IMG/VR virus record: IMGVR_UViG_3300037400_005412
DNA: 20,000 bases
Source: an uncultured virus (IMG/VR IMGVR_UViG_3300037400_005412)
Taxonomy: Duplodnaviria > Heunggongvirae > Uroviricota > Caudoviricetes
Strand: one strand, 5' to 3'
The notes beneath the pieces were generated by a model, which made no database searches, was not told the DNA's origin, and was given only the letters and a program-made list of their open reading frames with translations. The translations under genes and the position numbers were made by a program. The number at the start of each line of letters is the position of its first letter. Positions within the stretch are counted from its first letter, which is position 1. This document shows positions 1 through 18,259 of this stretch, piece after piece.

Positions 1-18
1 TAAATCTTTTAGTGCCAT
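1..18 (-). CDS. 5' end of a downstream gene (MALKDL..., runs off the window); possibly terminase large subunit
   Basis: ATG at 16-18 overlaps the TAA of the upstream gene (TAATG coupling), with a GAGGTG RBS upstream. The product is a guess from gene context only. Confidence 0.5.
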
Positions 19-1256
19 TAGATTTCCACCTCATCATTCTCTAATAAAGATTCAAGATATTCTTCGTCATCAGTTGTTTCTTCATCTACCATATTTGATA
101 ACTAAGCAAAATCTTCATCATTAAGAAAAGCCTTTTCATCTTCATCAAATAGCTCAGATTCAAATGCATCATCATCACCAGCAGCATCAGCATCTTGCAT
201 TGCTTCTTTTTCTTTATCGGCTTGAATTTGTCTGACTGCATTTTCAATAAGATTACCAAGATTCATTTCTTCTGTAACTAAAGTTCTAGTATATTTCTAG
301 AAATCTTGAATAGTTCTATCAACTTTATCTTGAGGTCCATCTACATAGTAACGAGGGAAAAATCCATCTCTTTCGCACATAGCAATTAATTCTGATACAG
401 AATCAACTACATTGCCCGATTCTGTTTTATTTTGGGCCGCAGTAAATCTACCTGATTTCATAAGCATATCATACATTTTAATCATTTTCTATGCGCCATC
501 AACATCGCCCATATCTAATAACTAATCACTTTTTAACGAAGTTTTACAAATCTTCTTTAAAGTATCTATATGACCTGCTGTTTGAATATCATATGATTCC
601 ATCATATCGTTATAAAGTTTTTCTAATTGAACCCATTCTTCTGGTTTATACATTTTGCCCCATTTCATACGGAGCATTAATTTATCCTCATCAGTCAATT
701 CATCTGTGATAACACTATCATCAAAACCATTTACTTCATCAAAATAATCTGGTCCATTGTTATAAGTATAATCTGATTGAGGCGGTGGAGGAGGCGGCTG
801 CAATTCTCCTTCTGGAATAGTGAATGTCGCTTTTTCAATTGCTTCTGTAATTTGCTGAGCATCATAGCCTTGACGCTTCATAGCCTATTCTATTTTATTA
901 TTTGCTAATTCCTATAAAAACTCTGTATCTTTCCAGCGATATTCTTTCCATTGTTTTAATTTCATTTTAGAAAAATATCTTCCAATAATTGTAGTTCCAG
1001 TTACCTTGCTCTTGTCTTTACCATATGAAGCCAATAACTTATTCCATTCTTCTGGAATATATGGGACATCAACTTCTTGTAAAATCCAAAGATAAGTATC
1101 TGGATTCCAATTATCAACATGCATTGTTATACATTTTTTACATTGATGAAGATATTTCTATGGATATTTTTCTATATTGTTTGATTGATAAAACTAATCA
1201 ACATTCATAGTTTTATTACATTTCTCACAATACATTTGTTCATTACTTTTCGGCAT
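18..1256 (-). CDS. TAG-recoded 412-aa phage protein with N-terminal CxxC...CxxC Zn finger and acidic C-terminus; possible terminase small subunit/packaging-module protein
   Basis: AAGGAGGT RBS, ATG at 1256, TAA at 18-20. ORF-track pieces 912-1124, 522-881 and 297-485 share one frame and are separated only by TAG (1194, 1158, 912, 885, 522, 489, 297, 102). Function is inferred from the MYCEKC..FY..CKKC and KWG..Y...EW..LE..Y motifs. Confidence 0.85.
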
Positions 1257-1373
1257 CTCTATACCTCCTTTTATATTTTTTATAAAAGGCTTAATTCAGC
1301 TTTTTTAATTTGCCCAAAAAGTAAACTCCTTTATCTCATACGTGAAAAATTTACCAATTTTATAATAGATTAA

Positions 1374-2459
1374 TCACTTTTGCCCAAGCGCATTTTCCGC
1401 TAAAAGCACATTCTTTTTAGATTTCGCATTACGGCATTCTTTGCATATACTATAAAAGCCATCTTTAGAAGTTTTATTTTTAGAAAAATATTTGTTATGT
1501 GCTAACTTAATTTGCCCACAACGACTACATTTTTTAAAAACGCCAGGTTCTTCTATTGTAAAATGCCAAGTCAGCCATTCATCTTCAGCAGTATCCGCAA
1601 TTAATTTTGGTATTTTATTTCGCCATAATGAAGAAATATATTCCATACTATGTTTAATTCCAAATTCAGTTTGAAGAGCAATTTGAATATCAGTATTAGG
1701 CATTCCATCAATTTTATATTCAACAATTCTTTTATATAAAGGATATTTTTTTAAAGCTTTATCGCATAAATTTTCAAAATCATAAATCATATACCAAGTG
1801 TCATTTTCAAAATTTTCAGAACTATCTTGCTTCAATTTAGAATAATTACATAATATTGCTTCACAAATACTTGGATTTAAAAAAGTAAAACCAGAATAAG
1901 ATATTTCACCATTTTTATCTATTGATATTTTGCCATCTAAAGAAACTTTTTGTTTACTATGAATTAATTTGATTGGGACAATAGGTTTACGATAAGCATT
2001 TTTAATAATATATTGGTCTTTTCGTAATTCTATTAAAGTTCGTTTAATTATATATGCTTCTCGACCAGTCGCAGTTTTTAATTTATCTTCCCAAATTTTA
2101 ATGGCTTCTTTTAATTGCTATAAAGGTTGAATTTCTTGAATATCGTTTTTAGTGATTGTTATTTTAGGTTGAAAAATTATATCTTTGTTTTCTGTTATTA
2201 AATTATATATACCATCTTCACCATTTTCAAATTGAGAGACAAGACCTTCAAAGGAAACTTCTCGTTTATCAACTGTCGCCATTCGATTATCAGTTAGAAT
2301 TTTGCGTTGTTTCTTTTCTTGTTTCTCCATACATAGAACTAGATAATCAGCTAAGATTTCTAAATATCGTTCGCCAGGATCGGGATTATCTTCCAAAATC
2401 TATTGAACTAATTTATTTCTATCTTCTGGATTTTCAAGAGTATAGTCTAATTTTATCAA
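1374..2459 (-). CDS. TAG-recoded 361-aa protein with a sigma-region-4-like HTH and C-terminal CxxC...CxxC Zn finger (putative DNA-binding/transcription factor)
   Basis: GGAGGT RBS at 2466-2471, TTG start at 2459 (MIKLDYTLENPEDRNKLVQ*ILED...), in-frame TAG at 2400 and 2118, TGA stop at 1374. Joins ORF-track pieces 2118-2396 and 1374-1835. Confidence 0.85.
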
Positions 2460-2486
2460 ACTATTACCTCCATTCATTCTATATTT

Positions 2487-2547
2487 ATTCTACCAAAAAA
2501 AATTTTAAATGTCAAATCTTGACAATATAAAAAAAATTTGGTAAAAT
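2487..2547. promoter_or_regulatory. Back-to-back divergent sigmaA-type promoters
   Basis: + strand: TTGACA (2519-2524), 17 bp, TG-n-TAAAAT (2542-2547). - strand: TTGACA (2515-2510), 17 bp, TG-n-TAGAAT (2492-2487). Confidence 0.8.
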
Positions 2548-2582
2548 ATATTTAGAAAATTTATTAAGGAGATTATAAAAAT

Positions 2583-2837
2583 ATGCAACTTATTAATGAA
2601 AATACAAGTAGAAAAATTGATAGTTTAGGGCGTATTAGTATTCCAAAAGGTATGCGCGATAGGATGGGGATGCCGCAGGACACTGAATTAAATTTTTATA
2701 CTTTGATTACTGATAAAGGAGAATAGATGATTTGTTTGGCGCCGACCACTTTTAGAAGAGATAGATTTTATGTAGCGGCTGAAGTGCTTGATGAACTTGG
2801 ATTAGATTTGCCAAAGGAGTTAAGAGCAAAGTTATAA
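2583..2837 (+). CDS. AbrB/MazE/SpoVT-family DNA-binding protein, 84 aa, one in-frame TAG
   Basis: AAGGAG RBS; MQLINENTSRKIDSLGRISIPKGMRDRMG matches the AbrB RKxDxLGRxxIPKxxR signature. TAG at 2724, TAA at 2835. Absent from the ORF track. Confidence 0.85.
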
Positions 2838-2842
2838 TAATT

Positions 2843-3190
2843 ATGATTTATACTAGTTATTTCGGTAATAAAAGTAATTTTCCAGAGGATGCCTATGTAA
2901 TTGGCATTACTAGATTTGCTCCTATTGGAATATAGGAAAATTGGGATGTGCTTGCGCCTAGTTCTGAATTATTAATGTAGTTTAAAAATAAAGAAATTGA
3001 TGAATTTATATTTAAAGTAAAATTTTTAGAGTAGTTAAAATAGGTTGACAAGAATTATATCATTGAATTGCTAAAGCTGGCTGAAAGCCATTGGGATAAT
3101 GTAATTCTATGTTGCTATGAAAAGAAAGGCGATTTTTGTCATCGACATATTGTAGCCGAATGGTTAGATATTGGAATAGAAGAACTATAA
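2843..3190 (+). CDS. DUF488-family protein, 115 aa, four in-frame TAG
   Basis: MIYTSYF...LAPSSELL...LCCYEKKGDFCHRHIVAEWL family motifs lie in one frame across TAGs at 2933, 2978, 3032 and 3041; TAA at 3188. Confidence 0.85.
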
Positions 3191-3360
3191 TGGTTCTTCT
3201 ATTTTTTTGTAATTGGAAATATCGTAATTAGAAATTGAAAATTCATTTCGGAATTTTTTAGGTCATACTATATATATATTATAATAAATAAAAAAAATAA
3301 TCCGAAAACATACGCCCCTTGCCCGCGGTTCGCGCGCACAAAAAAATTTTTTTTCTTTGT

Positions 3361-3377
3361 GGGGGGGGGGGGGGGGG
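3361..3377 (+). repeat. Poly-G homopolymer (17 G) at the boundary of the two regions
   Basis: Directly visible. Confidence 0.9.
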
Positions 3378-3454
3378 CACAGGTGCCGGCGATAAATATA
3401 TAAAAAAACCAGACTTAAAGTATAAAAAAATAAAATTATTTTTCTAGCTCAGAA

Positions 3455-4150
3455 AATACCTACTAAGTCTATAGTCCGTGATTTCAAAAGTGCGCTAAAC
3501 GTTTGTTCTTTCTACCCGATAAAAATATACCTCGAAAAATATCTACTAAGTCTGTAGTCCAATTTAAAAAACTTCCATCAATCAAATCATTATGTTACCC
3601 CGTCAAATAATCCTTCTTTATGCTTCAGCGCATCCTTTTCCATCGGCCTCAGCCGAACTTCACTTTAATACACTAAAGCGCAAAAGTGCGACGAAAATGT
3701 GTTCGCTGCTTTCGCGCGCGCAACGTCCCGAAACCCTGTTCGCTTCTTTGGGGAGGGGAGGGTAGGCCCACACTTTAGCACGTTAAAGCGTTATAGTAAG
3801 CGAGCACCTTTGTTAAAATTTTAACAAACTTTAGCGCATTAAAGCATTAAAGTGTTCCAAATGCGTGTTTGGCGCACTTTAACACGTTAAAGCGTTACAG
3901 TAAGCGAACACCTTTGTTAAAAATTTAACAAACTTTAACACACTAAATCATTAAGGTGGACGAGCTCCTTTGTTAAAAATTTAACAAACTTTAGCGCACT
4001 AAACCATCAAAGAGTTTGTCAAACTTGTGTTTGCTTCTTTTGGTTACAAAATAATGACAAAAAATTTTTTAAAAAAACACTTGACAAACCAGGAGTCAAG
4101 TGTTATAATAGAAGTGGCACCTATTAAAAGGTAACAAAATAATGACAAAA
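3455..4150. promoter_or_regulatory. Non-coding island 1 of operator-like repeats (Rex-like, CTTTA-N6-TAAAG, SOS-like, OmpR-type boxes)
   Basis: TTGTTAA-N4-TTAACAA at 3810, 3914, 3970. CTTTA-N6-TAAAG-type at 3663, 3773, 3829, 3877, 3933, 3989. GAAA/AAAC-N4-GTTC at 3497, 3693, 3730. GTWACA-N5-ATGACA at 4043, 4131. Confidence 0.75.
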
Positions 4151-4249
4151 AATTTCTAAAAAAAGTAGTTGACAAATAGCGCGTCCGGTGCTATAATACA
4201 ATCAGAAAGAGGGAAGGAAAACCCAACAAACCGGAAAGGAATTAGAAAA

Positions 4250-4405
4250 ATGAAGAATTGGAAAGTCTGGATGCTGGTTGCTGAAAATGGTGAAGTCCTC
4301 GCCCGCGGGCGCAAGCGTGATGTGATGCGGATCGCTTCTACTCGGTATGTTTATCAGCACATCTTTTCTGACAGCCTTTACCAGACTAGCGAGCCCCTCA
4401 ACTGA
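4250..4405 (+). CDS. Hypothetical early protein, 51 aa
   Basis: Promoter at 4169, AAAGGA RBS, ATG 4250, TGA inside the terminator hairpin. Confidence 0.8.
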   Translation: MKNWKVWMLVAENGEVLARGRKRDVMRIASTRYVYQHIFSDSLYQTSEPLN

Positions 4406-4416
4406 GGGGCTTTTTT
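4392..4416 (+). terminator. Intrinsic terminator
   Basis: AGCCCCTCA-ac-TGAGGGGCT followed by a T-run. Confidence 0.8.
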
Positions 4417-4462
4417 CATCCCCGCAGGTAAGCGAGCACCTTTGTTAAAAATTTAACAAACA

Positions 4463-4507
4463 TGGGCGACCTTTCCCTCCACTCCCGGGTGGACAACCTC
4501 CTGTTGT
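4463..4507 (-). ncRNA. Candidate antisense-strand small RNA with GGA-loop hairpins
   Basis: - strand promoter TTGACA (4542-4537), 17 bp, TATAGT (4519-4514). Transcript reads ACAAC-AGGAG-GTTGT, CCAC-CCGGGA-GTGG, AGGGAAAGG; no convincing ORF. Confidence 0.5.
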
Positions 4508-4666
4508 GGTTATACTATACCATACAGCCCGCTTTTTGTCAAGCAAAAAAATACACAAATTAGATAAAGCCTTTTTGTATAACATTACCTATTGACATTT
4601 CTCTTGTCCGGTGTTACAATACAATCAGAAAGAGAGAAGAACCCCTAATGTAAAGGAGAAAATAAA

Positions 4667-4867
4667 ATGAACCACATCATTTACACTGACCGATATTTTG
4701 AAAAAAATCTACAGCGTGTAGAAGTTACCTGCCGGAGCAAAGTCTACAAAACATACTATGCGCACAATCCCAGCGGTTTGAAACAGTACGCCCGCGTCTG
4801 GAATAATAGACTCGGCAAGATGATAGACATACGCCTTGACACTGATCTTGTGAAAGTTATTGATTGA
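4667..4867 (+). CDS. Hypothetical early protein, 66 aa
   Basis: Own promoter, AAAGGAG RBS, TGA stop. Confidence 0.8.
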   Translation: MNHIIYTDRYFEKNLQRVEVTCRSKVYKTYYAHNPSGLKQYARVWNNRLGKMIDIRLDTDLVKVID

Positions 4868-5015
4868 ATAGCGCGAACCAGCTAAAACCGGACGGCATAA
4901 ACCAGAAAAAACATCCGGGCTTAGCGCGAAAACCGTAGCTTTTTGATAAAAAAGAATTGACAAACAATCGGACGTGTGGTATAATACTCTTAGAAAGAGA
5001 CAGGAGGGCAACCCC

Positions 5016-5177
5016 ATGAAATACTACAATGATGCCGATTTCTGCAGGCCCAGCACTGCAGGCGCGAAACTCTTAAAGGTGGAGCGCAACAAGCTCAACC
5101 CATTGCCAGGCTTGACATTCGTATCAATCGGCTACTGGAAACTCGCAAGCGGCGAAGTGATTGGCATTGTATTCTAA
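5016..5177 (+). CDS. Hypothetical early protein, 53 aa
   Basis: Promoter near 4957, AGGAGG RBS, ATG 5016. Confidence 0.75.
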   Translation: MKYYNDADFCRPSTAGAKLLKVERNKLNPLPGLTFVSIGYWKLASGEVIGIVF

Positions 5178-5451
5178 AAGCTGACAGCCTTTTCTAATAC
5201 GCAATTCACCGCGCTTCCCGCGAAGGGCCCGAAGCGCAGGTTACAATATAGTGACAATTTTTTACGACAAATTACAGCTTTTTCAACCAGATTGCCGCAT
5301 CCCGAAAGTGTAACAGATTAATGACAGAACAGTACCAAAAGAAAAACATAATTTTTTTTGAAAAAATGCTTGACATTTACCCGGGCTTGTGGTATTATAA
5401 TACCAGAAAGAGGGAAGGAAAACCCAATAAACCAGAAAGGAAAGAAAGACA

Positions 5452-5565
5452 ATGATGCAGTATGGTTACTATGAAGCACACGAGGCAGAGTGGGAAGCTT
5501 GGAACGAGTACGTTGAATGGTTGAACTTTGAGGCCGACATGGCAACGAATCCCTACGATGAATAA
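5452..5565 (+). CDS. Acidic aromatic-rich peptide, 37 aa (paralog family A)
   Basis: MMQYGYYEAHEAEWEAWNEYVEWLNFEADMATNPYDE; promoter 5370, RBS, stop in hairpin. Paralogs at 8289 and 14189. Confidence 0.85.
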   Translation: MMQYGYYEAHEAEWEAWNEYVEWLNFEADMATNPYDE

Positions 5566-5655
5566 TCGTAGGGATTCCAAAAAAAACTATTGACAAACCG
5601 GACAGAGTATGCTATAATAAATCCAGAAGTTAAGAAAGAAAGGAAGTAAAAAAAA

Positions 5656-5841
5656 ATGAAAGACTTTAACATTAAAATCACTATTATTTCTGCGCTTATT
5701 ATTCTCAGCCTTTTGACTCTTGGAATTATCGCTTGCCTCACTTGCGATGCGCCGACTTGGGAAAAGGTCGCTGGAATAATTCTCCCGGTTGTCCCTGTTG
5801 GCCTTGAAAGCTTTCTGTTTTATACATACATCTGGGATTAA
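5656..5841 (+). CDS. Small membrane protein, 61 aa, two hydrophobic segments
   Basis: Own promoter, AAGGAAGT RBS, hydrophobic stretches, downstream hairpin plus T-run. Confidence 0.8.
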   Translation: MKDFNIKITIISALIILSLLTLGIIACLTCDAPTWEKVAGIILPVVPVGLESFLFYTYIWD

Positions 5842-5915
5842 GGACTTAAAAAAGTCCTTTTTCTTTTTTTATTTTAGGGCTTGACAAATCGCCCGGGCAA
5901 TGCTATAATGTAATC

Positions 5916-5959
5916 ACAGGTTGAGGGAAACCGCACTCGGGCAGGAGAGGGGAGAGACT
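5916..5959 (+). ncRNA. Candidate small RNA, GAGGGA-loop family, copy 1
   Basis: Promoter 5881-5909; GGTT-GAGGGA-AACC hairpin; no ORF before the next promoter. Confidence 0.6.
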
Positions 5960-6070
5960 ATCCAAAAGGTAACAAAAGAAAAACAAAAAATTTCTAAAAA
6001 TAACTCTTGACATTCGTCCGGACTTGTGGTATTATAATACCAGAAAGAGAAAAGAAAGGAAGTAAAAAAA

Positions 6071-6406
6071 ATGAAAAAGACAATAAAGTATGTGGTAGTA
6101 AGACTTACTGTTCCCGAGGATGTCAAGAATTATCATGGCTATTACATTCATACTTATGCTTATAAATCTGGAAATCATGATTCTGTCGTTGAGTATTGCC
6201 ACAAGGTAAAAAGCCAAAAGGGTTATAAAAATGGCACAAGCTATAAATGGTATGTAATGACTGAACATCAGGCACTTGAAGAATCTATCAGGCTTCACAA
6301 ATGGCAGGAAGAAAAATTAAACAAGGATTTAGAAAGGCGCTTTCCCATTCGTTATTGTGAACAAACCGCAAGAGAAGAACTTGCCGAAATGATGAGTGCA
6401 AGATAA
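6071..6406 (+). CDS. Hypothetical early protein, 111 aa
   Basis: Promoter 6007, RBS, TAA followed by a bidirectional terminator. Confidence 0.85.
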   Translation: MKKTIKYVVVRLTVPEDVKNYHGYYIHTYAYKSGNHDSVVEYCHKVKSQKGYKNGTSYKWYVMTEHQALEESIRLHKWQEEKLNKDLERRFPIRYCEQTAREELAEMMSAR

Positions 6407-6434
6407 AAAAGGTTGAGCAATCAACCTTTTTTTT
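6406..6434. terminator. Bidirectional intrinsic terminator
   Basis: AAAAAGGTTGA-gcaa-TCAACCTTTTT with flanking A and T runs. Confidence 0.8.
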
Positions 6435-6473
6435 AATGCAAAGAACCGAACACTCTCGCAGGCGGTCCGAAAA

Positions 6474-6502
6474 ATTATACCATACCAGTAGCAAAAAGTC
6501 AA
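6474..6502 (-). promoter_or_regulatory. Antisense promoter driving a short ORF-less transcript toward the 6406-6434 terminator
   Basis: TTGACT (6502-6497), 17 bp, TG-n-TATAAT (6479-6474). Confidence 0.65.
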
Positions 6503-6621
6503 GAAGAAATTTCGCACAAAATAGCATAAAACTGAACGTCCCGATTTGTGCACTTTGACTATTGACACCGGGCTATTTATTTGCTATAATGAAGCCACAA
6601 AAGGAAAAGGAGATAAAGAAA

Positions 6622-6930
6622 ATGATCAACATTAGAAGCATCCTAAAACTGGCTGAAAATGACGGCCTGACTCTTAAAGCTGGTAAGCCCATCACTTACA
6701 AGAGTGGTTGGCAGGTTGCCACCGAGGGCGTAGAGTGCCACACCGCAAGAGAAGCGATCAATGCGGTTAAGGCTTACAGCGGGAACTGTGGCGTGTGGTT
6801 TGCTGGCGGTATCTACTACATTGACAAAAGCCACCGCGTGAACACTAAACGCGAAGCACTGGAAATTGGCAAGACACACAATCAGATTTCTGTGTTGGGC
6901 TGGCGTAAAATGGCTTTAGCGTATTGCTAA
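6622..6930 (+). CDS. Hypothetical early protein, 102 aa
   Basis: AAGGAG RBS, ATG 6622 (the ORF-track start 6562 is the TTG of the -35 element). Confidence 0.85.
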   Translation: MINIRSILKLAENDGLTLKAGKPITYKSGWQVATEGVECHTAREAINAVKAYSGNCGVWFAGGIYYIDKSHRVNTKREALEIGKTHNQISVLGWRKMALAYC

Positions 6931-7033
6931 AGCCATTAAAATTTTTTTTGAAAAATTGAAAAAAATGCTTGACATTTTGCCCGGCTTGATATAATATACA
7001 ATCAGAAAGAGAAAAGAAAAGGAGATAATTAAA

Positions 7034-7225
7034 ATGTACATGATTCTTACTGCTGATACCGAAGAGACCATTGCTTCCACCAGATTTGAGGATGTAGCTA
7101 AAGTAATTGCTGATTCACTGCCTATCAAATGCGTTGTTCGGTATGCTGACATGGGCACTACAGTCTATTACAAAGCACCCGGTGCTAACTTCTTCTCTGC
7201 TAACGAAAAGCAGGAAGTGGCCTAA
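7034..7225 (+). CDS. Hypothetical protein, 63 aa (paralog of 19491-19673)
   Basis: Promoter and AAGGAG RBS; shares TIA..xFEDVA..IA..LP..CVVRY.D with the 19491 gene. Confidence 0.85.
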   Translation: MYMILTADTEETIASTRFEDVAKVIADSLPIKCVVRYADMGTTVYYKAPGANFFSANEKQEVA

Positions 7226-7521
7226 AAAGCCACTTCTTTTTTTTTTTTTTTTTTTTTTGGTATTGACATTTGCGTGCGCATGTGCTATAATAGAATTGGT
7301 GCGTTTCTTTCGTCCAGGGGCTGTGGCGCAGGTTACAATATAGTGACAAATTTTTGCGAGATGTTACAAGAAATTACCCGGACTTGCGGCGTCCTAAAAC
7401 TGGTTACAAAATAATTACAAATCAGTGACAAAAAGTTTTTTTAATTTTTTTGAAAAAATGCTTGACAAATGCGCCCGGCTGTGGTATATTATAATCACAA
7501 AAGGAAAGGAGATAAAAAGAA

Positions 7522-7743
7522 ATGAAAAAGATGTTTACTTATGACGTGGGTGGTTGGTTGTTCTGGGATACCGAGGCTTTCGGGAATGGCTGGAAAGCCG
7601 CAAAGGAAAAGGCCACCGCTCTCCACAGCGCGATCTATCGCACGGTCTATAATGGAGAGACTGAGCGCCGAGAGGTTTACTTTAAGGCTGGATGTTTCAA
7701 TGATGTTAAGTATGCCACCCCTGACAGCGTGATGATTTTCTAA
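7522..7743 (+). CDS. Hypothetical protein, 73 aa (paralog of 15781-15999)
   Basis: Promoter 7462 and RBS; shares EAFG..WK.A..KAT.LH..IYR.V...EV...GCF..V.YA.P..V.IF with the 15781 gene. Confidence 0.88.
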   Translation: MKKMFTYDVGGWLFWDTEAFGNGWKAAKEKATALHSAIYRTVYNGETERREVYFKAGCFNDVKYATPDSVMIF

Positions 7744-7844
7744 GGGATTAAAAAAATCCCTTAGAAAATTTAAAAAATGCTTGACAAACCGGTCAACTTG
7801 TGATATTATAATACCAGAAAGAGAAAGAAAGGAAGTAAAAAAAA

Positions 7845-8033
7845 ATGACTTACACAATTAGCAAGAATTTCAATGGAACTTACTCCATCCACCTTGGCGC
7901 CGACCTCTTTTACTCTTGGATTGATGAAGCGCCCACCTATGAAAAGGCAATAGAACTTGCGAGAACATACGCCGGAGAAAACGGCACAGTCCTCTATAAA
8001 GAAGACCTTTTCAAATCCGCCATTGAAATCTAA
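7845..8033 (+). CDS. Hypothetical early protein, 62 aa
   Basis: Promoter, RBS, terminator AAAAGAGAGCC-gcaa-GGCTCTTTT. Confidence 0.82.
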   Translation: MTYTISKNFNGTYSIHLGADLFYSWIDEAPTYEKAIELARTYAGENGTVLYKEDLFKSAIEI

Positions 8034-8105
8034 AAAGAGAGCCGCAAGGCTCTTTTTTTATAAAAAGTGCTTGACAAAACGCCCGGGCTATGATACAATA
8101 CAATC

Positions 8106-8153
8106 ACAGGCGGAGGGACGCCCCACGCGGGAAGTCGAGGGGAGAGACTGACT
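8106..8153 (+). ncRNA. Candidate small RNA, GAGGGA-loop family, copy 2
   Basis: Promoter 8071; GGCG-GAGGGA-CGCC hairpin; no ORF. Confidence 0.6.
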
Positions 8154-8288
8154 TAATAGTTACAAAATGGTAACAAAAAAGTTTTTTCAAAAAAATCAAA
8201 AAAAAGCTTGACAAAATGCCCGGGCTGTGCTATACTACAATCAGAAAGAGGGAAGGAAAACCCCAATAAACCAGAAAGGATGAATAAA

Positions 8289-8396
8289 ATGGAGTTTTAC
8301 AGTATGGAGCAGTTCGAGATCATGGGCGACCTGATGGAAGAATATCAGGAGTGGCTGGACTTTGAAGAGGACATGAAGTCCAATCCTTGGGGCTAA
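8289..8396 (+). CDS. Acidic peptide, 35 aa (paralog family A)
   Basis: MEFYSMEQFEIMGDLMEEYQEWLDFEEDMKSNPWG; promoter 8208, RBS, stop in hairpin loop. Confidence 0.8.
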   Translation: MEFYSMEQFEIMGDLMEEYQEWLDFEEDMKSNPWG

Positions 8397-8490
8397 AAAA
8401 GCCCCAAGGAAATTAAAAAAGTGCTTGACAAGTAAAACAAAGTATGATATAATAAAGGCATAAAAGGAAAAGAAAAGGAGAATTAAAAAA

Positions 8491-8775
8491 ATGAGTTACT
8501 TTATGGGAAATGGCCGCGCCGATACTTGCCGCCACAGCGATGAAGCCTACAAGGGCAAGGCGGTTGAAATGATGATTGACGTGCTGGAAGCCCGTGATGG
8601 TTTTGAACTTCGCAAGGCAAGCGACAGCACCGGCTCGGCGGCAAAGTTCCGCATTTTCTGGGATGGCGAGTGCATCAGCACCGTCTACAATGAAAAGGAA
8701 GCGCGGGCGCTGTTCAATGACTTTGCCCCAGCCCCCAAGCGCAAGGCTGGACGCCCCAAGAAGAATGCCGCATAA
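8491..8775 (+). CDS. Hypothetical early protein, 94 aa, basic C-terminal tail (KRKAGRPKK, AT-hook-like)
   Basis: Promoter, AAGGAG RBS, downstream terminator. Confidence 0.82.
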   Translation: MSYFMGNGRADTCRHSDEAYKGKAVEMMIDVLEARDGFELRKASDSTGSAAKFRIFWDGECISTVYNEKEARALFNDFAPAPKRKAGRPKKNAA

Positions 8776-9033
8776 GTTCCAAAAGAGAAAGAGTTAAAAA
8801 ACTCTTTCTCTTTTCTTTTGTGGGACGTGCGCCGCCCGGGTAAGCGAATCCTTTTAGCTGGAGTTAGCGCCGACTTACCCGACAGGCCCCGAGCTTTAAC
8901 ACAGTAAAGTGGTGAAGAATTTTGAGGCGATTTGCTTGTTAAAAACTTAACGATATTTTTTCCGAAAAAGGGCTTGACAAATGCCTCCGGGTGTGGTATA
9001 GTATAATCACAAAAGGAAAGGAGATAAAGAAAA

Positions 9034-9192
9034 ATGAAACGTGAACAGTATTACAAGAACAAGAGAACAGGCGAGCACACCGAAAGCCATAAACAAGCCA
9101 TGGAATGGTATCGGGCAAAGGATGAGATCGAAGTCTGGTATTATTCCGAAGTGTGCGGCGAATGGCTGTGCGGGGTTGAGTGGGTTTGGTAA
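9034..9192 (+). CDS. Hypothetical Trp-rich protein, 52 aa
   Basis: MKREQYYKNKRTGEHTESHKQAMEWYRAKDEIEVWYYSEVCGEWLCGVEWVW; promoter, RBS, stop in hairpin. Confidence 0.8.
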   Translation: MKREQYYKNKRTGEHTESHKQAMEWYRAKDEIEVWYYSEVCGEWLCGVEWVW

Positions 9193-9257
9193 AAATCCAC
9201 TCAACTTTTTTTGAAAAAGGGCTTGACAAATCGCCCGGGCTGTGATACTATACAATC

Positions 9258-9300
9258 ACAGGCGGAGGGACGCCCCACGCGGGGAGCCGAGGGGGGAGAG
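9258..9300 (+). ncRNA. Candidate small RNA, GAGGGA-loop family, copy 3
   Basis: Promoter 9223; GGCG-GAGGGA-CGCC hairpin; no ORF. Confidence 0.6.
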
Positions 9301-9409
9301 CGCGCTAAAAGTTACAAAAGAATGACAAAAAATTTTTTTGAAAAGTGCTTGACAAGTCCGGACATGTATGCTATAATGTAGTCACAAAAGAGAAAAGGAG
9401 ATAAAAAAA

Positions 9410-9586
9410 ATGACTTACGAAGAAATGTACGATCTGCTGGCCGATGTTCTCGGAATTGATGAAAATGCCCTTGATCTGGCTTTTGCCATTGGCGGATGTA
9501 ACGAAGAAACCGCCGAAAGAATTTTGTTCTACTACACTGGCTGGCATTCCTTTGAGGGCTGGCTGGGCGAACAGGAAGAGGACTGA
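9410..9586 (+). CDS. Highly acidic small protein, 58 aa
   Basis: MTYEEMYDLLADVLGIDENALDLAFAIGGCNEETAERILFYYTGWHSFEGWLGEQEED; promoter 9349, AAGGAG RBS. Confidence 0.85.
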   Translation: MTYEEMYDLLADVLGIDENALDLAFAIGGCNEETAERILFYYTGWHSFEGWLGEQEED

Positions 9587-9688
9587 AAGAGTCCTCTTTT
9601 GCCCGGGCAAAAGTTACAAAAGAAAGACATTGACAAATAAAATAAAGTATGGTATTATAATACCAGAAAGAACAAAGGAGATAAAAAA

Positions 9689-9880
9689 ATGAAAAACTAT
9701 AATAACATGAGCTGTGCTGAACTGCGGCGGCAACTGAACCAGATCGACAATGACCTGCGGAACTTCCCCACTATGAGCCAAATTGAAAAAAACCGCCTGA
9801 CCTATGAGCGGATGAAAGTCAACGGCATTCTGCGCCACAAGATCACAGAAATCCTTGATGAATGTGATGAAAAGGCTTGA
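9689..9880 (+). CDS. Hypothetical helical/coiled-coil protein, 63 aa
   Basis: Promoter 9630, RBS; the TGA stop lies inside the next TTGACA. Confidence 0.82.
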   Translation: MKNYNNMSCAELRRQLNQIDNDLRNFPTMSQIEKNRLTYERMKVNGILRHKITEILDECDEKA

Positions 9881-9937
9881 CAAATAAAACAAAGTATGCT
9901 ATAATAAAGGTACAAAAAAGAAAAGGAGAATAAAAAA

Positions 9938-10075
9938 ATGAAAAAGTTTGAAACCAAAATCACTCGTGATAATGCCGATGTAAAGTGCATTGTTGAAGCC
10001 ATTGATAAAGAACATGCAGCCCGCCGCTTCTTTGAGATTCTTGGAGAGCATGGCCTGAAAATCAAGGAACTGTAA
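9938..10075 (+). CDS. Hypothetical protein, 45 aa
   Basis: MKKFETKITRDNADVKCIVEAIDKEHAARRFFEILGEHGLKIKEL; promoter, RBS, stop hairpin plus T-run. Confidence 0.8.
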   Translation: MKKFETKITRDNADVKCIVEAIDKEHAARRFFEILGEHGLKIKEL

Positions 10076-10222
10076 AAAGTTCCTTGATTTTTTTATGCCA
10101 AAAATACTTTAAAAATTTTAAGTAAAAACCGCAAAAAATCTCTTGACAAATCGCCCGGTTTATGGTATTATAATACCAGAAAGAGGGAAGGAAAACCCCA
10201 CAAACCAGAAAGGAAAAGAAAA

Positions 10223-10414
10223 ATGTTTTATTGTTATGTTGGTGGTTATGATTGTTCTGCTGAGGTTATCCGCGAAGAAGGTTGGAAGTGTGAAGCGGTT
10301 TTCGCAACTTTGCAAGAAGCATTTGATTATTGTGAAGAACATGCTTGCTATGATGATACTGGTTGGATAGAACATAATGGAGATATTCGCCAATTCTTTG
10401 ATTGGGAACTATAA
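10223..10414 (+). CDS. Acidic Cys-containing small protein, 63 aa
   Basis: Promoter 10143, leader hairpin, RBS, downstream terminator. Confidence 0.82.
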   Translation: MFYCYVGGYDCSAEVIREEGWKCEAVFATLQEAFDYCEEHACYDDTGWIEHNGDIRQFFDWEL

Positions 10415-10500
10415 TCAAGAGCCAAAAAGACTCTTGATTTTTTTTAAAAAAAATTGAAAAAATGCTTGACAAATCGCCCGGGCAGTGCTATAATGTAATC

Positions 10501-10548
10501 ACAGGTTGAGGGAAACCGCACTCGGGCAGAAGAGGGGGAGGACTGACT
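10501..10548 (+). ncRNA. Candidate small RNA, GAGGGA-loop family, copy 4
   Basis: Promoter 10466; GGTT-GAGGGA-AACC hairpin; near-identical to copy 1. Confidence 0.6.
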
Positions 10549-10653
10549 TTAAGTTACAAAACAGTAACAAATAGTTCCAAAAGAAAATTGTTGACATAAT
10601 ACAGTTGACATGCTATAATAATACCAGAAGTTAAGAAAGAGAGGAAAAAAGAA

Positions 10654-10734
10654 ATGTATCAAACTGCTATTGCCGCCGTCCTTGTTATTGTCTTTGTTGT
10701 AGCTATTGCCGCAATTTATTTGAATAATTTATAA
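10654..10734 (+). CDS. Single-TM micropeptide, 26 aa
   Basis: MYQTAIAAVLVIVFVVAIAAIYLNNL; promoter 10591, GAGG RBS. Confidence 0.7.
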   Translation: MYQTAIAAVLVIVFVVAIAAIYLNNL

Positions 10735-10823
10735 AAAAGACTTGACAAGCCCGGATACTTGTGTTATACTACAATCAGAAAGCGGGAAGGAAAACCTGCA
10801 CAAACCAGAAAGGAAAAAAGAAA

Positions 10824-11144
10824 ATGCCGCCCATTGATATTAATAATCTTAGCTATCATGTCCGTATGGATAGAAAAGAAAGACTGGTACAAATTAAATC
10901 TATTGGAATTGGCGCCCCGATTGCTAATAAAGAAGAAACCAAAGATGGTCGAAAAGTTATGAAAACTCTCACTTCTACTGGAATAATGGTGATTAGAGCA
11001 GTAGAAAGTAACATGATTATTACCATGTATCTTGCTGATTTCGATCAAGCAGAAAAAATGTTTAGAAAACAGTATGGATTGAAACTTCCAAAAGACATCG
11101 GAAATAAAATTAAATTAAATAACATCATGTTCCCCGCTAATTAA
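10824..11144 (+). CDS. Hypothetical basic protein, 106 aa
   Basis: Promoter 10742, leader hairpin, AAAGGA RBS, ATG 10824. Confidence 0.82.
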   Translation: MPPIDINNLSYHVRMDRKERLVQIKSIGIGAPIANKEETKDGRKVMKTLTSTGIMVIRAVESNMIITMYLADFDQAEKMFRKQYGLKLPKDIGNKIKLNNIMFPAN

Positions 11145-11215
11145 TGCGGGGACTTGATTTTTATAAAAAAAAATAGTATAATAATTATAGAAAAATAAAT
11201 AAAGGAGGTTTTAAG

Positions 11216-11332
11216 ATGTCTTTAGAGCTTGCCCGGGCATTGCTTGTGATTGCAAAATATTGCGCTTCTTGTGATGATTGTAGCGCTTGCCCACTTCATG
11301 ACATTTGCGGAAAAATTCCACTTGAATGGTAA
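11216..11332 (+). CDS. Cys-rich micropeptide, 38 aa (CxxCxxCxxCP...C)
   Basis: MSLELARALLVIAKYCASCDDCSACPLHDICGKIPLEW; AAGGAGGT RBS. Confidence 0.78.
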   Translation: MSLELARALLVIAKYCASCDDCSACPLHDICGKIPLEW

Positions 11333-11527
11333 TTAACGCAAAGAGCCGACATTCCCAAGGTCGGTTCGCACTTTCACACGCTAAAGGGCTGAAGAATTTT
11401 CGGCGGGCAAGGCAAGGCAAAAATAATTTATATTTTTTTCCTAAAACCTATTGACATTTTAGAACCTATGTGCTATACTATAATTGTTCCAAGAGAGAAT
11501 AACAAAATAAAAAAGGAGAATAAAACT

Positions 11528-11710
11528 ATGTACAATGTGCGCTTTACTGACACTATTCACGGTGAGACTGAGGAAAACTTTGACAGCTATGATGCAGCCA
11601 TGGAGTACTGGAATGACTATGCTGATACTGAGTCTTGTGTGGCTGGGGTTATGATGGATTTGGATAATTGCGAAATTATCTGGAACTTTGACGATCGAGA
11701 GGTCGAATAA
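11528..11710 (+). CDS. Highly acidic small protein, 60 aa
   Basis: Promoter 11451, AAGGAG RBS, ATG 11528. Confidence 0.85.
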   Translation: MYNVRFTDTIHGETEENFDSYDAAMEYWNDYADTESCVAGVMMDLDNCEIIWNFDDREVE

Positions 11711-11787
11711 AAAAATATAAAAAGGGGCTTGACAAACAAGCCCCTTTGTGCTATTATAATACCAGAAAAGGAAAGGGGAATAAAAAA

Positions 11788-11967
11788 ATGACTACTTACA
11801 GAGAAAACCTGCTTGACCGCATGATCCACATTTACGGGATGGAAGCTCCAATCGTAATTCAGTTTGCCGGAATGTGTGAAAGATATGAGAATAACGCTTT
11901 TAATGATGACATTTTGCGGCTGTTGGTGGAAGCTCACGAAGCTGACCCAGTTTTTGAGGAAGATTAA
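11788..11967 (+). CDS. Acidic small protein, 59 aa
   Basis: Promoter 11729, RBS, stop in hairpin. Confidence 0.82.
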   Translation: MTTYRENLLDRMIHIYGMEAPIVIQFAGMCERYENNAFNDDILRLLVEAHEADPVFEED

Positions 11968-12073
11968 AAATCTTCCTCAAATGCCCGGGCGGAAAAGTTA
12001 CAAAAGAAAGACATTGACAAATAAATCATGATGTGTTATAATAAAGGCGCAAAAAGAAAAGGAGAACAAAACA

Positions 12074-12511
12074 ATGAATAAAGTTTTTAAGAAAATAGAC
12101 GCATGGACTGAGCCTGTACGCGATTGGTGGTTTTGGAATTGGGAAGTTGCTGTAACAATAATTTTTGTAGTGGCTATCCTTATTGCGGTTGCTGTGTTTG
12201 GTCTATGGGCTTCTAGTGCTTTCTATGAAGAAGTAGAAAATTATGACTTCACCGCACAAGTGTATGATAAAGACCATTATACTACTCATTCAGTAAGTTA
12301 TATTACTTCTGGTAAATCTCGCATCCCTGTCTACCATACCCATCACCATTACAAAATAATGTGGGAAGATGTGGGAGAACGTGGGGCGCTTGAAATCGGT
12401 GAAGATCATTATAATTTAATTAAAATAGGTGATTTTGTAAATATTCATTGTTCTGTGAGAGCAGATAAGCAAGGGGAATTACATTATTATTATAGTTTCA
12501 AGGGATATTAA
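12074..12511 (+). CDS. Membrane-anchored protein, 145 aa (one TM helix followed by a soluble beta-rich domain)
   Basis: Promoter 12014, RBS, hydrophobic VAVTIIFVVAILIAVAVFGLWA segment. Confidence 0.85.
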   Translation: MNKVFKKIDAWTEPVRDWWFWNWEVAVTIIFVVAILIAVAVFGLWASSAFYEEVENYDFTAQVYDKDHYTTHSVSYITSGKSRIPVYHTHHHYKIMWEDVGERGALEIGEDHYNLIKIGDFVNIHCSVRADKQGELHYYYSFKGY

Positions 12512-12575
12512 AATCCCTTGAAATTTTTTTCAAAAAGGGCTTGACAAATCGCCCGGGCTATGGTATATTATAGTC

Positions 12576-12624
12576 ACAGGCGGAGGGACGCCACACTCGG
12601 GTAGTAGAGGGGGAGGCTTTTTTT
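12576..12624 (+). ncRNA. Candidate small RNA, GAGGGA-loop family, copy 5
   Basis: Promoter 12541; GGCG-GAGGGA-CGCC hairpin; ends in a T-run. Confidence 0.6.
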
Positions 12625-12760
12625 ATTTGGAGAATGTGTGGGAGGTTGCCCGGGCGGCGGCAAAAGAAAAACAAAAAGTTACAAAAGAAAAACATTGACA
12701 AGTAACCAGAAGTATGGTATATTATAATCACAAAAGGAAAAGAAAAGGAGATCAAAAAAA

Positions 12761-13039
12761 ATGTCTGGATTTTATGAACTTAAATGTGTTGATACTCTTG
12801 GTTTTTCTGTCTACTATTACTTTTATAGCCCTCGCGCTATCCGCAATCCAAAAGGCGCTTTGAAATCTGGTTATGCCCCTGATAAAGTGCGGCTTTTGGT
12901 AGAAGACCGAGAAGACACCCCTTGCGGGATTCGCTTTATGCACAATCCTTTTGAATACATCTATTTGAAGTATTTCAAAAAAACTGGGACTTTCAAGTTT
13001 AGCGGTTATCGTCTTGATTGGGAAAAAGAGGAATTTTAA
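12761..13039 (+). CDS. Hypothetical early protein, 92 aa
   Basis: Promoter 12695, AAGGAG RBS, stop hairpin. Confidence 0.85.
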   Translation: MSGFYELKCVDTLGFSVYYYFYSPRAIRNPKGALKSGYAPDKVRLLVEDREDTPCGIRFMHNPFEYIYLKYFKKTGTFKFSGYRLDWEKEEF

Positions 13040-13131
13040 AAAAAATTCCTCTTTTTAAAAAAAAGGCTTGACAAATACATCCGGATGTGATATATTATAA
13101 TTACAAAAGGAAAAGAAAAGGAGAATAAAAA

Positions 13132-13320
13132 ATGTTTATTGTTATTCTTAAAATTATCGCTGTTATTGCTGTCATTCGTTTCGTTGGTGGTGTGATCGAA
13201 ATAGTGATGAAAAATTTGTTTCTTGAAATTGAGTCAAGACGTTATGACAACGACCCTCAGCGCAAACAGAAGATCGAAGAAATGCGAAAAAGAATTGAAG
13301 AAAATTCAAAAAGGGCTTGA
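13132..13320 (+). CDS. Small membrane protein, 62 aa
   Basis: N-terminal hydrophobic helix and charged tail; TGA overlaps the next -35. Confidence 0.82.
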   Translation: MFIVILKIIAVIAVIRFVGGVIEIVMKNLFLEIESRRYDNDPQRKQKIEEMRKRIEENSKRA

Positions 13321-13375
13321 CAAAATAGCCCCTTTATGATACAATACCAATAGAAACAGAAAAGGAGAAATAAAA

Positions 13376-13495
13376 ATGATGTATGACATTTATCCCTGTG
13401 ATCTCGATCCCTTTGGCGAATGCCCGAAGCGGTGTCAGGACTGTGCCCATTGTGTGGGCTGGTTCATGGATGAACCAGAGGACGAAGAAAATTAA
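13376..13495 (+). CDS. Cys-rich acidic micropeptide, 39 aa
   Basis: MMYDIYPCDLDPFGECPKRCQDCAHCVGWFMDEPEDEEN; promoter 13317, AAGGAG RBS. Confidence 0.78.
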   Translation: MMYDIYPCDLDPFGECPKRCQDCAHCVGWFMDEPEDEEN

Positions 13496-13538
13496 AAAAG
13501 GTCTTGACAGGACGCAAATCCTGTGATATAATAAAGAT

Positions 13539-13810
13539 ACAAAAGGGGAAGGAAAACCCCACAAACCTCTGAGCTGGCCCAGCGAAATGGTACAGAGTGA
13601 GCATGAACACTTTGTCAAAAAATGCCGTGAACTGTGAATGAGAAATAGCAGGTGAGGTTAAGGTCTTACAGCACACCGCCGACCAAGACGCGAAAGGGCG
13701 GGAGTGGGAGAGCAAACTCCCAAACAGAACACAAAACCGTGAGAGCGAGAGAGACACGAAATAACCGCTCAGGATGGCAACCTTAAACCCCCGCTGTGAG
13801 TGGGGTTTTA
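13539..13810 (+). ncRNA. Candidate ~270-nt structured non-coding RNA, family not recognised
   Basis: Promoter 13504-13532 and terminator ~13785-13810; no RBS-led ORF; several local and long-range complementary segments. Confidence 0.6.
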
Positions 13811-13884
13811 AATAACCAAAAAAAGGTCTTGACAGGATGTAAATCCTGTGCTATAATAAAGACACAATAAAGGAGATAAAAACA

Positions 13885-13965
13885 ATGAAAGCACGACCGC
13901 CGCCCACAAGGGCATGTGATTGGATTACTAGTAATTAGATGGTAATGTATAGGAGAATAGACTAA
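13885..13965 (+). CDS. Micropeptide MKARPPPTRACDWITSN(*/Q)MVMYRRID: 17 aa in code 11 or 26 aa in code 15
   Basis: Promoter 13829, AAGGAG RBS, ATG 13885, in-frame TAG at 13936, TAA at 13963 overlapping the next ATG. Confidence 0.55.
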
Positions 13966-14188
13966 TGAATAGAATCAGAGACGAGACGTAAAACCTGATA
14001 ATGATAGTATAATGATGGAATAGAATGATAGTAATAAAATAGAATAAAGGCAAATGTCAAGAGGCGGCTCGGTTGGAGGTTGGGAGTAGCCGAAAAAATT
14101 TTTCAAAGAAATTTGAAAAACCCTCTTGACAAATCGCCCGAGCTGTGGTAATATATAATCACAAAGAGAAAACAAGGAGGAAAACAAA

Positions 14189-14299
14189 ATGACTAATGAC
14201 TACTGGGAAGCACACGAAGCCGAATGGCTCGCCGCTCAGGAGTGTATGGAATGGCTCCTGTTTGAGGCCGACATGGCCACAGACCCCTACCGGAATTAA
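14189..14299 (+). CDS. Acidic aromatic-rich peptide, 36 aa (paralog family A)
   Basis: MTNDYWEAHEAEWLAAQECMEWLLFEADMATDPYRN; AAGGAGG RBS; stop in hairpin. Confidence 0.85.
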   Translation: MTNDYWEAHEAEWLAAQECMEWLLFEADMATDPYRN

Positions 14300-14388
14300 A
14301 ATCCGGTAGGGAAAAATAAAAAAAGTAGTTGACAAATCCAAAAGTATATGATATAATTAAGACACAAAGAGAAAAGGAGATAAAAAAA

Positions 14389-14721
14389 ATGCTTAATAGT
14401 ACTCGTAAAGTTCTTGAACAGGTTGCCGCCGACTGGATGGGCAAAGACCGCGACTGGGAGACTTGGGAACATATGTTCGATTCTCGTGGACACAATATGT
14501 TTGGGACTGTTTATGCTATATCCTATTCTACTTTCCGTAAATATTCGACTTTAGAAAAAGTTGAAACCTTTGTTCCTGTGACTGTTGAAGAACTTGTCGA
14601 TCTGCTTAATGACTGCGCTGGGAATGACCTCTATGGGGCTTCTTGGGAGTATGTCATGCGGGACGGCTTGCCGTATGAACGGGTAATCACCTATCGGCTT
14701 GTAAAAATTAATTTCGATTAA
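14389..14721 (+). CDS. Hypothetical early protein, 110 aa
   Basis: Promoter 14329, AAGGAG RBS, ATG 14389. Confidence 0.85.
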   Translation: MLNSTRKVLEQVAADWMGKDRDWETWEHMFDSRGHNMFGTVYAISYSTFRKYSTLEKVETFVPVTVEELVDLLNDCAGNDLYGASWEYVMRDGLPYERVITYRLVKINFD

Positions 14722-14793
14722 AAGCAAAAGGGGCTTGACAAACCCAAGCCCCTATGGTATAATACAATCAGAAACAACAAGGAGGATAAAAAA

Positions 14794-14934
14794 ATGTACG
14801 AATACACAATCCGTTATTTGGAAAATGGTGAAGAAGATTACCTTTATGGATACAGCGAACGCGATCTGATTAAGCGCTATCCTGAAATCCCCCGCAGTAT
14901 GTATGTGATTGTAAGCCGCGAGTATATAGACTAA
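14794..14934 (+). CDS. Tyr-rich small protein, 46 aa
   Basis: MYEYTIRYLENGEEDYLYGYSERDLIKRYPEIPRSMYVIVSREYID; AAGGAGG RBS; terminator follows. Confidence 0.8.
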   Translation: MYEYTIRYLENGEEDYLYGYSERDLIKRYPEIPRSMYVIVSREYID

Positions 14935-14964
14935 ACCCCACCACAAGTAGGGTTTATTTTTTTT

Positions 14965-15093
14965 TGCATAAATACGCGCGCACTATGAATGAATATTCAT
15001 TCATTATAAATAAATAATTATGCATTCGGCGCACCGTCTTCCAGCCGCCGCGCAGCGTGTTTCTATTATACCACATGCCGGCAATTTTGTCAA
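14965..15093. promoter_or_regulatory. ARG-box-like palindromes plus an antisense promoter
   Basis: TGAAT-N4-ATTCA and TAAAT-N4-ATGCA at ~14986-15025; - strand TTGACA (15093-15088), 17 bp, TATAAT (15070-15065). Confidence 0.6.
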
Positions 15094-15252
15094 GCATTTT
15101 TTATTCATCAAAGTGCACAAATTTTTTTCCTGAAATGAATAATAAATAATTACCCAGGAGGGATGAATAAAAAATTTTTTTCAAAAAAGTATTGACAAAT
15201 GCCCGGTCATTTGCTATAATCAATATAGAAATTAAGAGAGGGGAACAAAAAA

Positions 15253-15999: not shown

Positions 16000-16034
16000 G
16001 GGACTTGAATAAAGTCCCATTTTTTTTGACCATT

Positions 16035-18256: not shown

Positions 18257-18259
18257 AAA

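Follow-up and report, generated by a model that had tools for sequence, protein, structure and literature searches.

How TAG is read in protein-coding genes is the question raised by the left end of IMGVR_UViG_3300037400_005412, an IMG/VR record of an uncultured virus. The window, that is, the whole stretch of DNA analyzed here, comprises 20,000 nucleotides (nt), in which open reading frames (ORFs) were called with TAG read through. At its left end stand four genes, g1 to g4, whose frames contain TAG repeatedly, and an earlier note on this DNA had proposed that the codon is translated there as glutamine (Gln). Judged from the sequence comparisons below, the source of the window is with high probability a tailed phage, large and uncultured, that has a host of the low-GC Gram-positive type and uses TAG as Gln (NCBI table 15) in its AT-rich genes with the help of a phage suppressor tRNA. 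The observations behind this reading are the in-frame TAGs themselves, the match of these positions to Gln, the gain in coding cover, the recoding and the tRNA(CUA) genes in close relatives, and an array of genes in the same window that is free of TAG.

The count of 15 in-frame TAGs (8+2+1+4) in four genes on both strands, each ending in TAA or TGA, was exact, as were the coordinates. The g1 gene (18-1256, minus strand) encodes 412 amino acids (aa), ends in TAA and contains eight TAGs, at codons 21, 33, 115 and 124 (1194-1196, 1158-1160, 912-914 and 885-887) and at codons 245, 256, 320 and 385 (522-524, 489-491, 297-299 and 102-104). The neighboring g2 (1374-2477, minus strand) encodes 367 aa, or 361 aa when counted from a TTG at codon 7; it ends in TGA and contains TAG at codons 26 (2400-2402) and 120 (2118-2120). 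On the plus strand, g3 (2583-2837, 84 aa, TAA stop) has a single TAG at codon 48 (2724-2726), and g4 (2843-3190, 115 aa, TAA stop) has four, at codons 31, 46, 64 and 67 (2933-2935, 2978-2980, 3032-3034 and 3041-3043). Over the 978 codons of the four genes, TAG thus occurs 15 times in frame, and TAA and TGA do not occur at all. Read in their two other frames, the same genes contain 49 TAG, 91 TAA and 89 TGA. Given these off-frame proportions, the probability that 15 out of 15 interruptions would be TAG is about 9e-11.

The same picture is obtained from the coding cover. ORFs of at least 100 aa cover 0.25 of positions 1-3300 under code 11, and this fraction rises to 0.83 when TAG is read through, so that the comparison of codes 11 and 15 suggested in the earlier note comes out clearly on the side of code 15. 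Code 4 (0.27) and other stop reassignments were also considered for the left part and were rejected, as the cover was not improved.

Homologs of these genes continue beyond the TAG positions. A scan of IMG/VR with g1 confirmed 89 relatives. The comparison was continued with the 80 best loci, in which residues 1-412 of g1 align. For g4, 98 database homologs were found, and the 92 of them with at least 100 aa were aligned as full-length DUF488 proteins. No homolog was found to end at a TAG. With TAG translated as Gln, g4 is a DUF488-N3a protein: PF22751 matches residues 13-109 at 2.4e-16, with 60.5 bits against a cut-off of 27. As the earlier note had stated for the DUF488 motifs, this match spans the TAGs, and it crosses all four of them. 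The conserved C-terminal CYEK..DFCHRH block of the family sits past the last TAG of g4.

The residue that stands opposite TAG was tested only in loci without an in-frame stop, namely 48 of 80 for g1, 47 of 78 for g2, 21 of 21 for g3 and 6 of 10 for g4. In these relatives, Gln is found opposite the TAGs of the window in 165 of 479 cells (34%). Opposite the CAA and CAG codons of the window it is found in 31% of cells, and its background frequency is 3.7%. When log-likelihoods are summed over the alignments, Gln (-37.9) ranks above lysine (Lys, -42.7) and glutamate (Glu, -42.9). The signal is strongest at codons 245, 256 and 115 of g1, where 45, 41 and 31 of 48 relatives have Gln, and at codon 48 of g3 (17 of 20). 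The reverse test was made with 270 in-frame TAGs from 22 relatives: 57 are aligned with CAA or CAG of the window and 30 with one of its TAGs, and another 39 stand opposite Glu. A consistent residue opposite TAG, on which the earlier note had made its proposal depend, thus exists insofar as Gln fits best in the relatives without in-frame stops. Together with the gain in cover, this match supports the reading of TAG as Gln in g1-g4.

The relatives themselves provide further evidence. Identity in g1 does not exceed 71-72% even for the best of them from IMG/VR and from GTDB genome contigs, and the relatives' sizes range from 118 to 240 kb. An exact 40-mer of the window had no match in viral_contigs. 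In nine of their loci (L001-L008 and L022), reading through TAG raises the ORF cover from 0.40-0.58 to 0.76-0.98. Locus L022 lies in a record of 239,565 bases, referred to here as G001, with a completeness rating of 100% and 71% identity in g1. Among its 38 tRNA matches is one with the anticodon CTA (L114:11768-11837). This tRNA is nearest to the tRNA-Gln(CTG) of the same genome and shares its acceptor-stem pattern and the G73-CCA end. A second relative, G003 (155,695 bases), likewise has one tRNA with the anticodon CTA (L115:14887-14974). This second tRNA measures 88 nt, about 19 of them in the variable region, and in overall identity it is nearest to tRNA-Leu and tRNA-Ser; its acceptor ends (TGGGG...CCCCAG) are those of the tRNA-Gln(TTG) of G003. 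A promoter of the form TTGAAA-17-TATAAT, with a TG, lies about 60 nt upstream of it.

TAG is not the only stop codon found within frames of this family. In-frame TAG occurs in 22 loci of the g1 family and in-frame TGA in 12 (L025, L052, L054, L055, L058-L063, L066 and L067), two of which, L054 and L055, are also among the TAG loci. In the 12 loci, TGA faces a tryptophan (Trp) of the window in 37 of 53 cases, which indicates that the TGA-bearing relatives would use code 4. Because some loci lack in-frame stops, others have TAG, and still others have TGA facing Trp, the g1 family is, as read from these alignments, a mixture of standard, TAG-recoded and TGA-recoded members. The relatives carry binning labels of Erysipelotrichaceae, Bacilli, Anaeroplasmatales and Clostridia, and in one case of a Methanosphaera bin; as a pointer to the host, such labels of metagenome-assembled genomes are a weak hint.

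The remainder of the window behaves differently. From 4081 to 19999 on the plus strand runs an array of early type. It consists of about 39 small genes (24-161 aa), and most of these are preceded by a strong ribosome-binding site (RBS) and by a promoter of their own, of the consensus sigma-70, host-like form TTGACA-N17-TATAAT. No long ORFs appear at 3400-20000 under any code, because the genes are genuinely small and not because another code is in use. In the 2914 codons of the array, TAG occurs in frame not once, in agreement with the earlier note, which had placed the recoding in the left-hand genes. Its genes end in TAA (32) or TGA (6) and never in TAG, with one gene open at the window end; the left genes end in TAA three times and in TGA once. 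TAG therefore serves as terminator in none of the 42 complete genes of the window (4 on the left and 38 in the array). Of the Gln-type codons, 15 of 50 are TAG in the left genes, against none of 54 in the array (Fisher P = 5e-6).

The two parts also differ in general codon usage. The GC content at third codon positions is 19% in the left genes and 45% in the array, and the preference within the regular Gln codons is reversed, with 32 CAA and 3 CAG on the left and 14 CAA and 40 CAG in the array. TTA accounts for 47 of 84 leucine (Leu) codons (56%) in the left genes and for 16 of 187 (9%) in the array. The array includes a tRNA-Leu gene with the anticodon TAA, which reads TTA (18954-19040, plus strand), behind its own consensus promoter at about 18906-18935. 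This tRNA-Leu(TAA) is syntenic in G001 (L111:2578-2664).

Homologs of the array are present in three relatives (L003, L005 and L022). Across relatives, its proteins are 84-100% identical; those encoded at 8289-8396 and 9938-10075 reach 100% and that at 9410-9586 reaches 95%. The left-hand genes are less similar to those of relatives: g1 is about 70% identical, g3 and g4 about 50%, and g2 is 75% identical to the syntenic gene of L001, L003, L004, L005 and L022. Because the array proteins are far more conserved than the left-hand genes, the comparison suggests that the array may be an early module that is shared or exchanged between phages. In its make-up it is reminiscent of the host-takeover modules known from SPO1-like phages. 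Searched at the DNA level against 50,697 phage records, positions 3400-11300 gave no match.

The most likely mechanism would be that the phage encodes a glutamine-type suppressor tRNA with the anticodon CUA, which competes successfully with release factor 1 of the host at UAG. The TAG-containing genes would then give full-length products only once tRNA(CUA) is present. The array could be translated both before and after the change in decoding, because TAG is wholly avoided in it and it would be readable in either state. The presence of the suppressor in this phage, its charging with Gln and the time at which the change takes place are points that we infer from the observations above.

Several results weigh against this reading, at least in part. 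At 7 of the 15 TAG positions the columns are variable, and Lys, Glu, Asn, Asp or Val exceeds Gln. Among the 92 aligned homologs of g4, codon 64 has Glu in 38 and Gln in 27, codon 46 has Gln in 17 and Asp in 17, and codons 31 and 67 are variable; some close homologs may, moreover, themselves derive from translation with table 15. Taken by themselves, the four TAGs in the DUF488 gene would hence not single out Gln, and these columns appear compatible with it but not decisive. The g1 alignments with Enterococcus phage EF5, Geobacillus virus E3 and Bacillus phage Thrax3 have Gln at 2 of 22 covered TAG positions (8, 7 and 7 in the three phages); at 24-37% identity, these phages are too distant to be informative on the residue. 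In the 20-kb window, the tRNA search found only the tRNA-Leu(TAA) and no suppressor tRNA, and Rfam at the gathering threshold likewise yielded the tRNA alone. No match to a release factor (PF00472) or to a class Ic synthetase, i.e., a glutaminyl- or glutamyl-tRNA synthetase (PF00749), was found in G001 and G003, so that these two genomes appear to lack accessory machinery for a code change.

The timing is also less simple than the contrast between the two parts might suggest. Both TAG-containing operons have sigma-70-like promoters as well, arranged as a divergent pair at 2487-2547 (both strands). Each matches 11 of 12 consensus positions and has a TG before the -10 box, the assignment being a match to the consensus only. 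TTGACA-17-TAGAAT (2515-2487, minus strand) faces g2 and g1, and TTGACA-17-TAAAAT (2519-2547, plus strand) faces g3 and g4. A simple split into early genes in the standard code and late genes in the recoded one is therefore not shown.

These points have to be set against the other explanations of the in-frame TAGs. TAG could be a sense codon for another residue, namely Glu, Lys or the amino acid of a class II-type tRNA. The seven positions at which other residues are commonest in the relatives speak for this, as do the length, the long variable region and the tRNA-Leu/tRNA-Ser likeness of the G003 suppressor. In many low-GC Gram-positive bacteria, Gln-tRNA is made via Glu-tRNA, and given this route a mischarging is conceivable. 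However, the four conserved positions named above have Gln in most relatives, Gln leads Lys and Glu by about 5 log-likelihood units, and the spectrum of residues opposite TAG is that opposite CAA and CAG. The G003 suppressor, for its part, has the acceptor ends of a tRNA-Gln. We regard another residue as improbable. Even less credit is given to the disfavored view that the TAGs are true stops and that g1-g4 are decayed, fragmented or expressed by occasional leaky read-through only. Under code 11 the four frames are indeed split into pieces of 2-247 codons, and the window lacks a suppressor tRNA of its own. Nevertheless, TAG alone interrupts these frames, although TAA and TGA are each about twice as common off frame. 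The similarity to relatives is full-length and extends beyond every TAG, with the DUF488 C-terminal motif placed 3' of all four TAGs of g4, and relatives have TAGs elsewhere in the same genes along with tRNA(CUA) genes.

The contrast between the two parts of the window would be meaningless if the record were an assembly chimera in which a TAG-using part and a TAG-free array from different phages were joined at a poly-G tract. Between the TAG-using genes and the array lies a GC-rich insert (3315-3395) with runs of A and T and with 19 G at 3361-3379. Long G runs are a familiar type of sequencing artefact. In sequencing run X1, which contains 97% of the sampled words, the contigs break off at 3376 and resume at 3385, and none of the contigs from four sequencing runs bridges 3376-3385. 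The depth in X1 is 13-14 to the left of the 19-G tract and 32-38 to the right of it, and the GC content jumps from 28-30% to 40%. The insert is absent from the homologous spot in L022. On the other side, three independent relatives (L003, L005 and L022) share the order g1, g2, g3, g4, a gap of about 1 kb and then the array, with array homologs that are 84-100% identical. L022 is contiguous over the sequence homologous to both flanks of the tract. G001 shows the same GC jump, from 26-31% to 38-41% over a block at 110-150 kb with 63 promoter-like sites. Of the 78 genes called in this block, two have TAG at their end, and at least one of these TAGs looks like a sense codon. Because of the synteny in L003, L005 and L022, the contiguity of L022, and the GC jump and the syntenic tRNA-Leu of G001, we conclude from these comparisons that the left part and the array belong to one phage, and a chimera is considered very improbable. 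The insert could be a real low-complexity tract or a weak point of the assembly, or it could mark an end of the genome or the edge of a terminal repeat. Such a repeat may also account for the depth step, which is roughly 2.7-fold, as may a conserved array that is common to co-occurring strains.

If the TAG-to-Gln reading is accepted for one continuous genome, a wider interpretation can be put forward tentatively, and we hold it to be possible rather than probable: two translation regimes may exist on the same genome. The GC-richer array, which prefers CAG and CTN and is free of TAG, would be readable by the naive host. The AT-rich remainder, which prefers TTA and CAA and uses TAG as Gln, would be served by the phage tRNAs, a near-complete set (38 matches in G001) that would include the tRNA-Leu(UAA) placed in the array behind an early-type promoter. 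If this were true, phage tRNAs would change the decoding capacity of the cell as a whole, with the stop reassignment as only the most conspicuous sign, and the array would be a semi-independent, highly conserved module (84-100% identity against about 70% for g1).

Recoding of this kind has been described before. The reassignment of TAG to Gln and of TGA to Trp was reported in eight clades of gut phages by Borges et al. (bioRxiv 10.1101/2021.08.26.457843), and according to the portion of this preprint available to us, four of the eight mix codes 11, 15 and 4, suppressor tRNAs occur in 40% of the TAG-recoded genomes, structural and lysis genes are recoded, cattle are among the sources, and two genomes of the clade Agate encode release factor 2 (RF2). 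Several of these traits recur here: in-frame TAG aligns with Gln, tRNA(CUA) genes are found in the relatives of the window, one family mixes codes 11, 15 and 4 (22 TAG loci and 12 TGA loci), a putative packaging gene and presumably the structural genes are recoded, the genomes are large (relatives of 118-240 kb), and the origin is an animal gut, since the sequencing runs that contain the window, none of them listed as RNA, are labelled bovine gut. As far as the accessible part of that work goes, the nearest known systems would be the large Firmicutes-associated recoded clades such as Agate, and the likeness to the named clades (Agate, Jade, Sapphire and others) extends to genome size, habitat and mixed codes only. 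Unlike in the two Agate genomes mentioned there, no RF2 was found in G001 and G003. In the window, recoding extends to two genes behind a sigma-70-like promoter, one for a regulator and one for a DUF488 protein, and the part without TAG is an array of promoters with a markedly higher GC content; the sections of Borges et al. at hand contain no case of either.

Two further groups of recoded phages can be compared. Phassvirus phAss-1 is an uncultured phage of 136 kb from the human gut (Babkin et al. 2023, PMC10607447). It resembles the present phage in being large and uncultured, in having TAG inside characteristic phage ORFs and in carrying suppressor tRNA genes. When the left 3.3 kb were compared with the 50,697 phage records by blastn, only three weak matches (65-68% identity) appeared, none of which is named phAss-1 or Phassvirus; Phassvirus is therefore not close at the DNA level. 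For crAss-like phages, code 15 was proven by proteomics (Peters et al. 2022, PMC9523058), and no other case of TAG to Gln is known to be validated experimentally. These phages share the meaning of TAG with the window; in contrast to the phage studied here, they belong to another phage order and have hosts among the Bacteroidota.

Cultured phages with a g1 homolog include large siphoviruses of Bacillota, namely Enterococcus phage EF5, the VRE9 phages, Geobacillus virus E3, the Lactococcus phage 949 group, Bacillus phage Tsamsa and the Thrax group. Their g1 homologs have 23-37% identity over 77-84% of the protein. In EF5, a g2 homolog lies near the g1 homolog, as in the window. Unlike the window, these phages use the standard code, and the g1 alignments of EF5 and Thrax3 are free of in-frame stops; they are only distant relatives.

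The left-hand genes can be assigned in part. g1 corresponds to phrog_3314 (6e-55), a family without an assigned function, and no match to it was found in the copy of Pfam that was searched. A tblastn search with g1 matched 71 phage records, all from large phages that either have Bacillota hosts or are unassigned. The homologs in Geobacillus virus E3 and Bacillus phage Thrax3 lie directly upstream of the genes for the terminase large subunit and the portal, and in several Bacillus phages they carry the annotation terminase small subunit, so that g1 would occupy the position of this subunit. The next gene downstream starts in an overlapping TAATG at 16-20 (minus strand) and continues beyond the window edge. 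In five relatives (L001, L002, L004, L005 and L022), the match to g1 covers some 410 residues and extends over about 1585-1597 nt. Because this exceeds the 1239 nt of the window gene by about 350 nt, an insertion is suggested in these relatives, possibly an intron or an extra domain.

g2 matches phrog_5767, annotated as sigma factor, at 3e-49; its Pfam search gave nothing at E<=0.01, and its C-terminus has a zinc-ribbon-like CxxC..CxxC pattern. g3 scores 23.8 bits with PF04014 (SpoVT-AbrB), just under the cut-off of 24.7, and matches phrog_4681 (antitoxin) at 2.3e-8. It is predicted to be a small, AbrB/MazE-like DNA-binding protein with the SpoVT-AbrB fold. The statement in the earlier note that all four genes have good RBSs could be upheld for g1 (AGGAGG) and g3 (AAGGAG) and not for the other two. 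In g2, a GGAGG lies within the ORF, six bases 5' of the in-frame TTG at codon 7, and because of this spacing the TTG is the likelier start; both TAGs remain inside the ORF with either start. g4 starts three bases past the TAATAA of g3, without a Shine-Dalgarno sequence of its own at normal spacing. A terminator-like hairpin (3173-3205, plus strand) overlaps the end of g4.

Within the array, the promoters form one family (D1) with 32 copies in 3200-17000, and 29 strict matches are found in the window. They often share the 5' leader CCAGAAAGAGGGAAGGAAAACCC. A G-rich element of about 45 nt without an ORF recurs 3' of such a promoter (TCACAGG..GAGGGA..CGGG..GAGGGG; family D8) and has 36 invariant columns. 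The copies, promoter included, lie at 5905-5990, 8095-8180, 9247-9332, 10490-10575 and 12565-12650, with a further one at L022:6865-6950(-). It could be a small RNA or an element that forms a G-quadruplex; no Rfam match was obtained for it at the gathering threshold. Iteron-like repeats at 3640-4470 and 16040-16400 flank the main block of the array and consist of CACTTTARCRCGYTAAAG units and of GTAAGCGAGCACCTTTGTTAAAAATTTAACAAAC in three to four copies (families D10-D12). A 64-nt repeat is found at 14988 and at 16040, and L022 has similar CTTTAAYACAYTAAA motifs. The iteron-like repeats may be elements of an origin or of a repeat boundary. Between 13500 and 14100, array-type promoters at 13504 and 13829 are followed by no convincing ORF: one of the two stretches spans about 270 nt, and the other has an ORF of 17 codons that runs into TAG. 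These ORF-poor stretches may be non-coding RNAs.

The window is thus a further example of a TAG-to-Gln recoded phage from the gut or rumen, a phenomenon that has already been published, and its recoding confirms known biology without opening new ground. For annotation, the contig and its relatives need translation with table 15. Without it, fragments are obtained for the protein in the position of the terminase small subunit and for the sigma-like protein, and presumably for the virion genes as well. The window is also a clean example of a recoded codon that is avoided in both of its meanings, as sense codon and as stop, within a promoter-dense early module. At the level of the family defined by g1, three genetic codes coexist.

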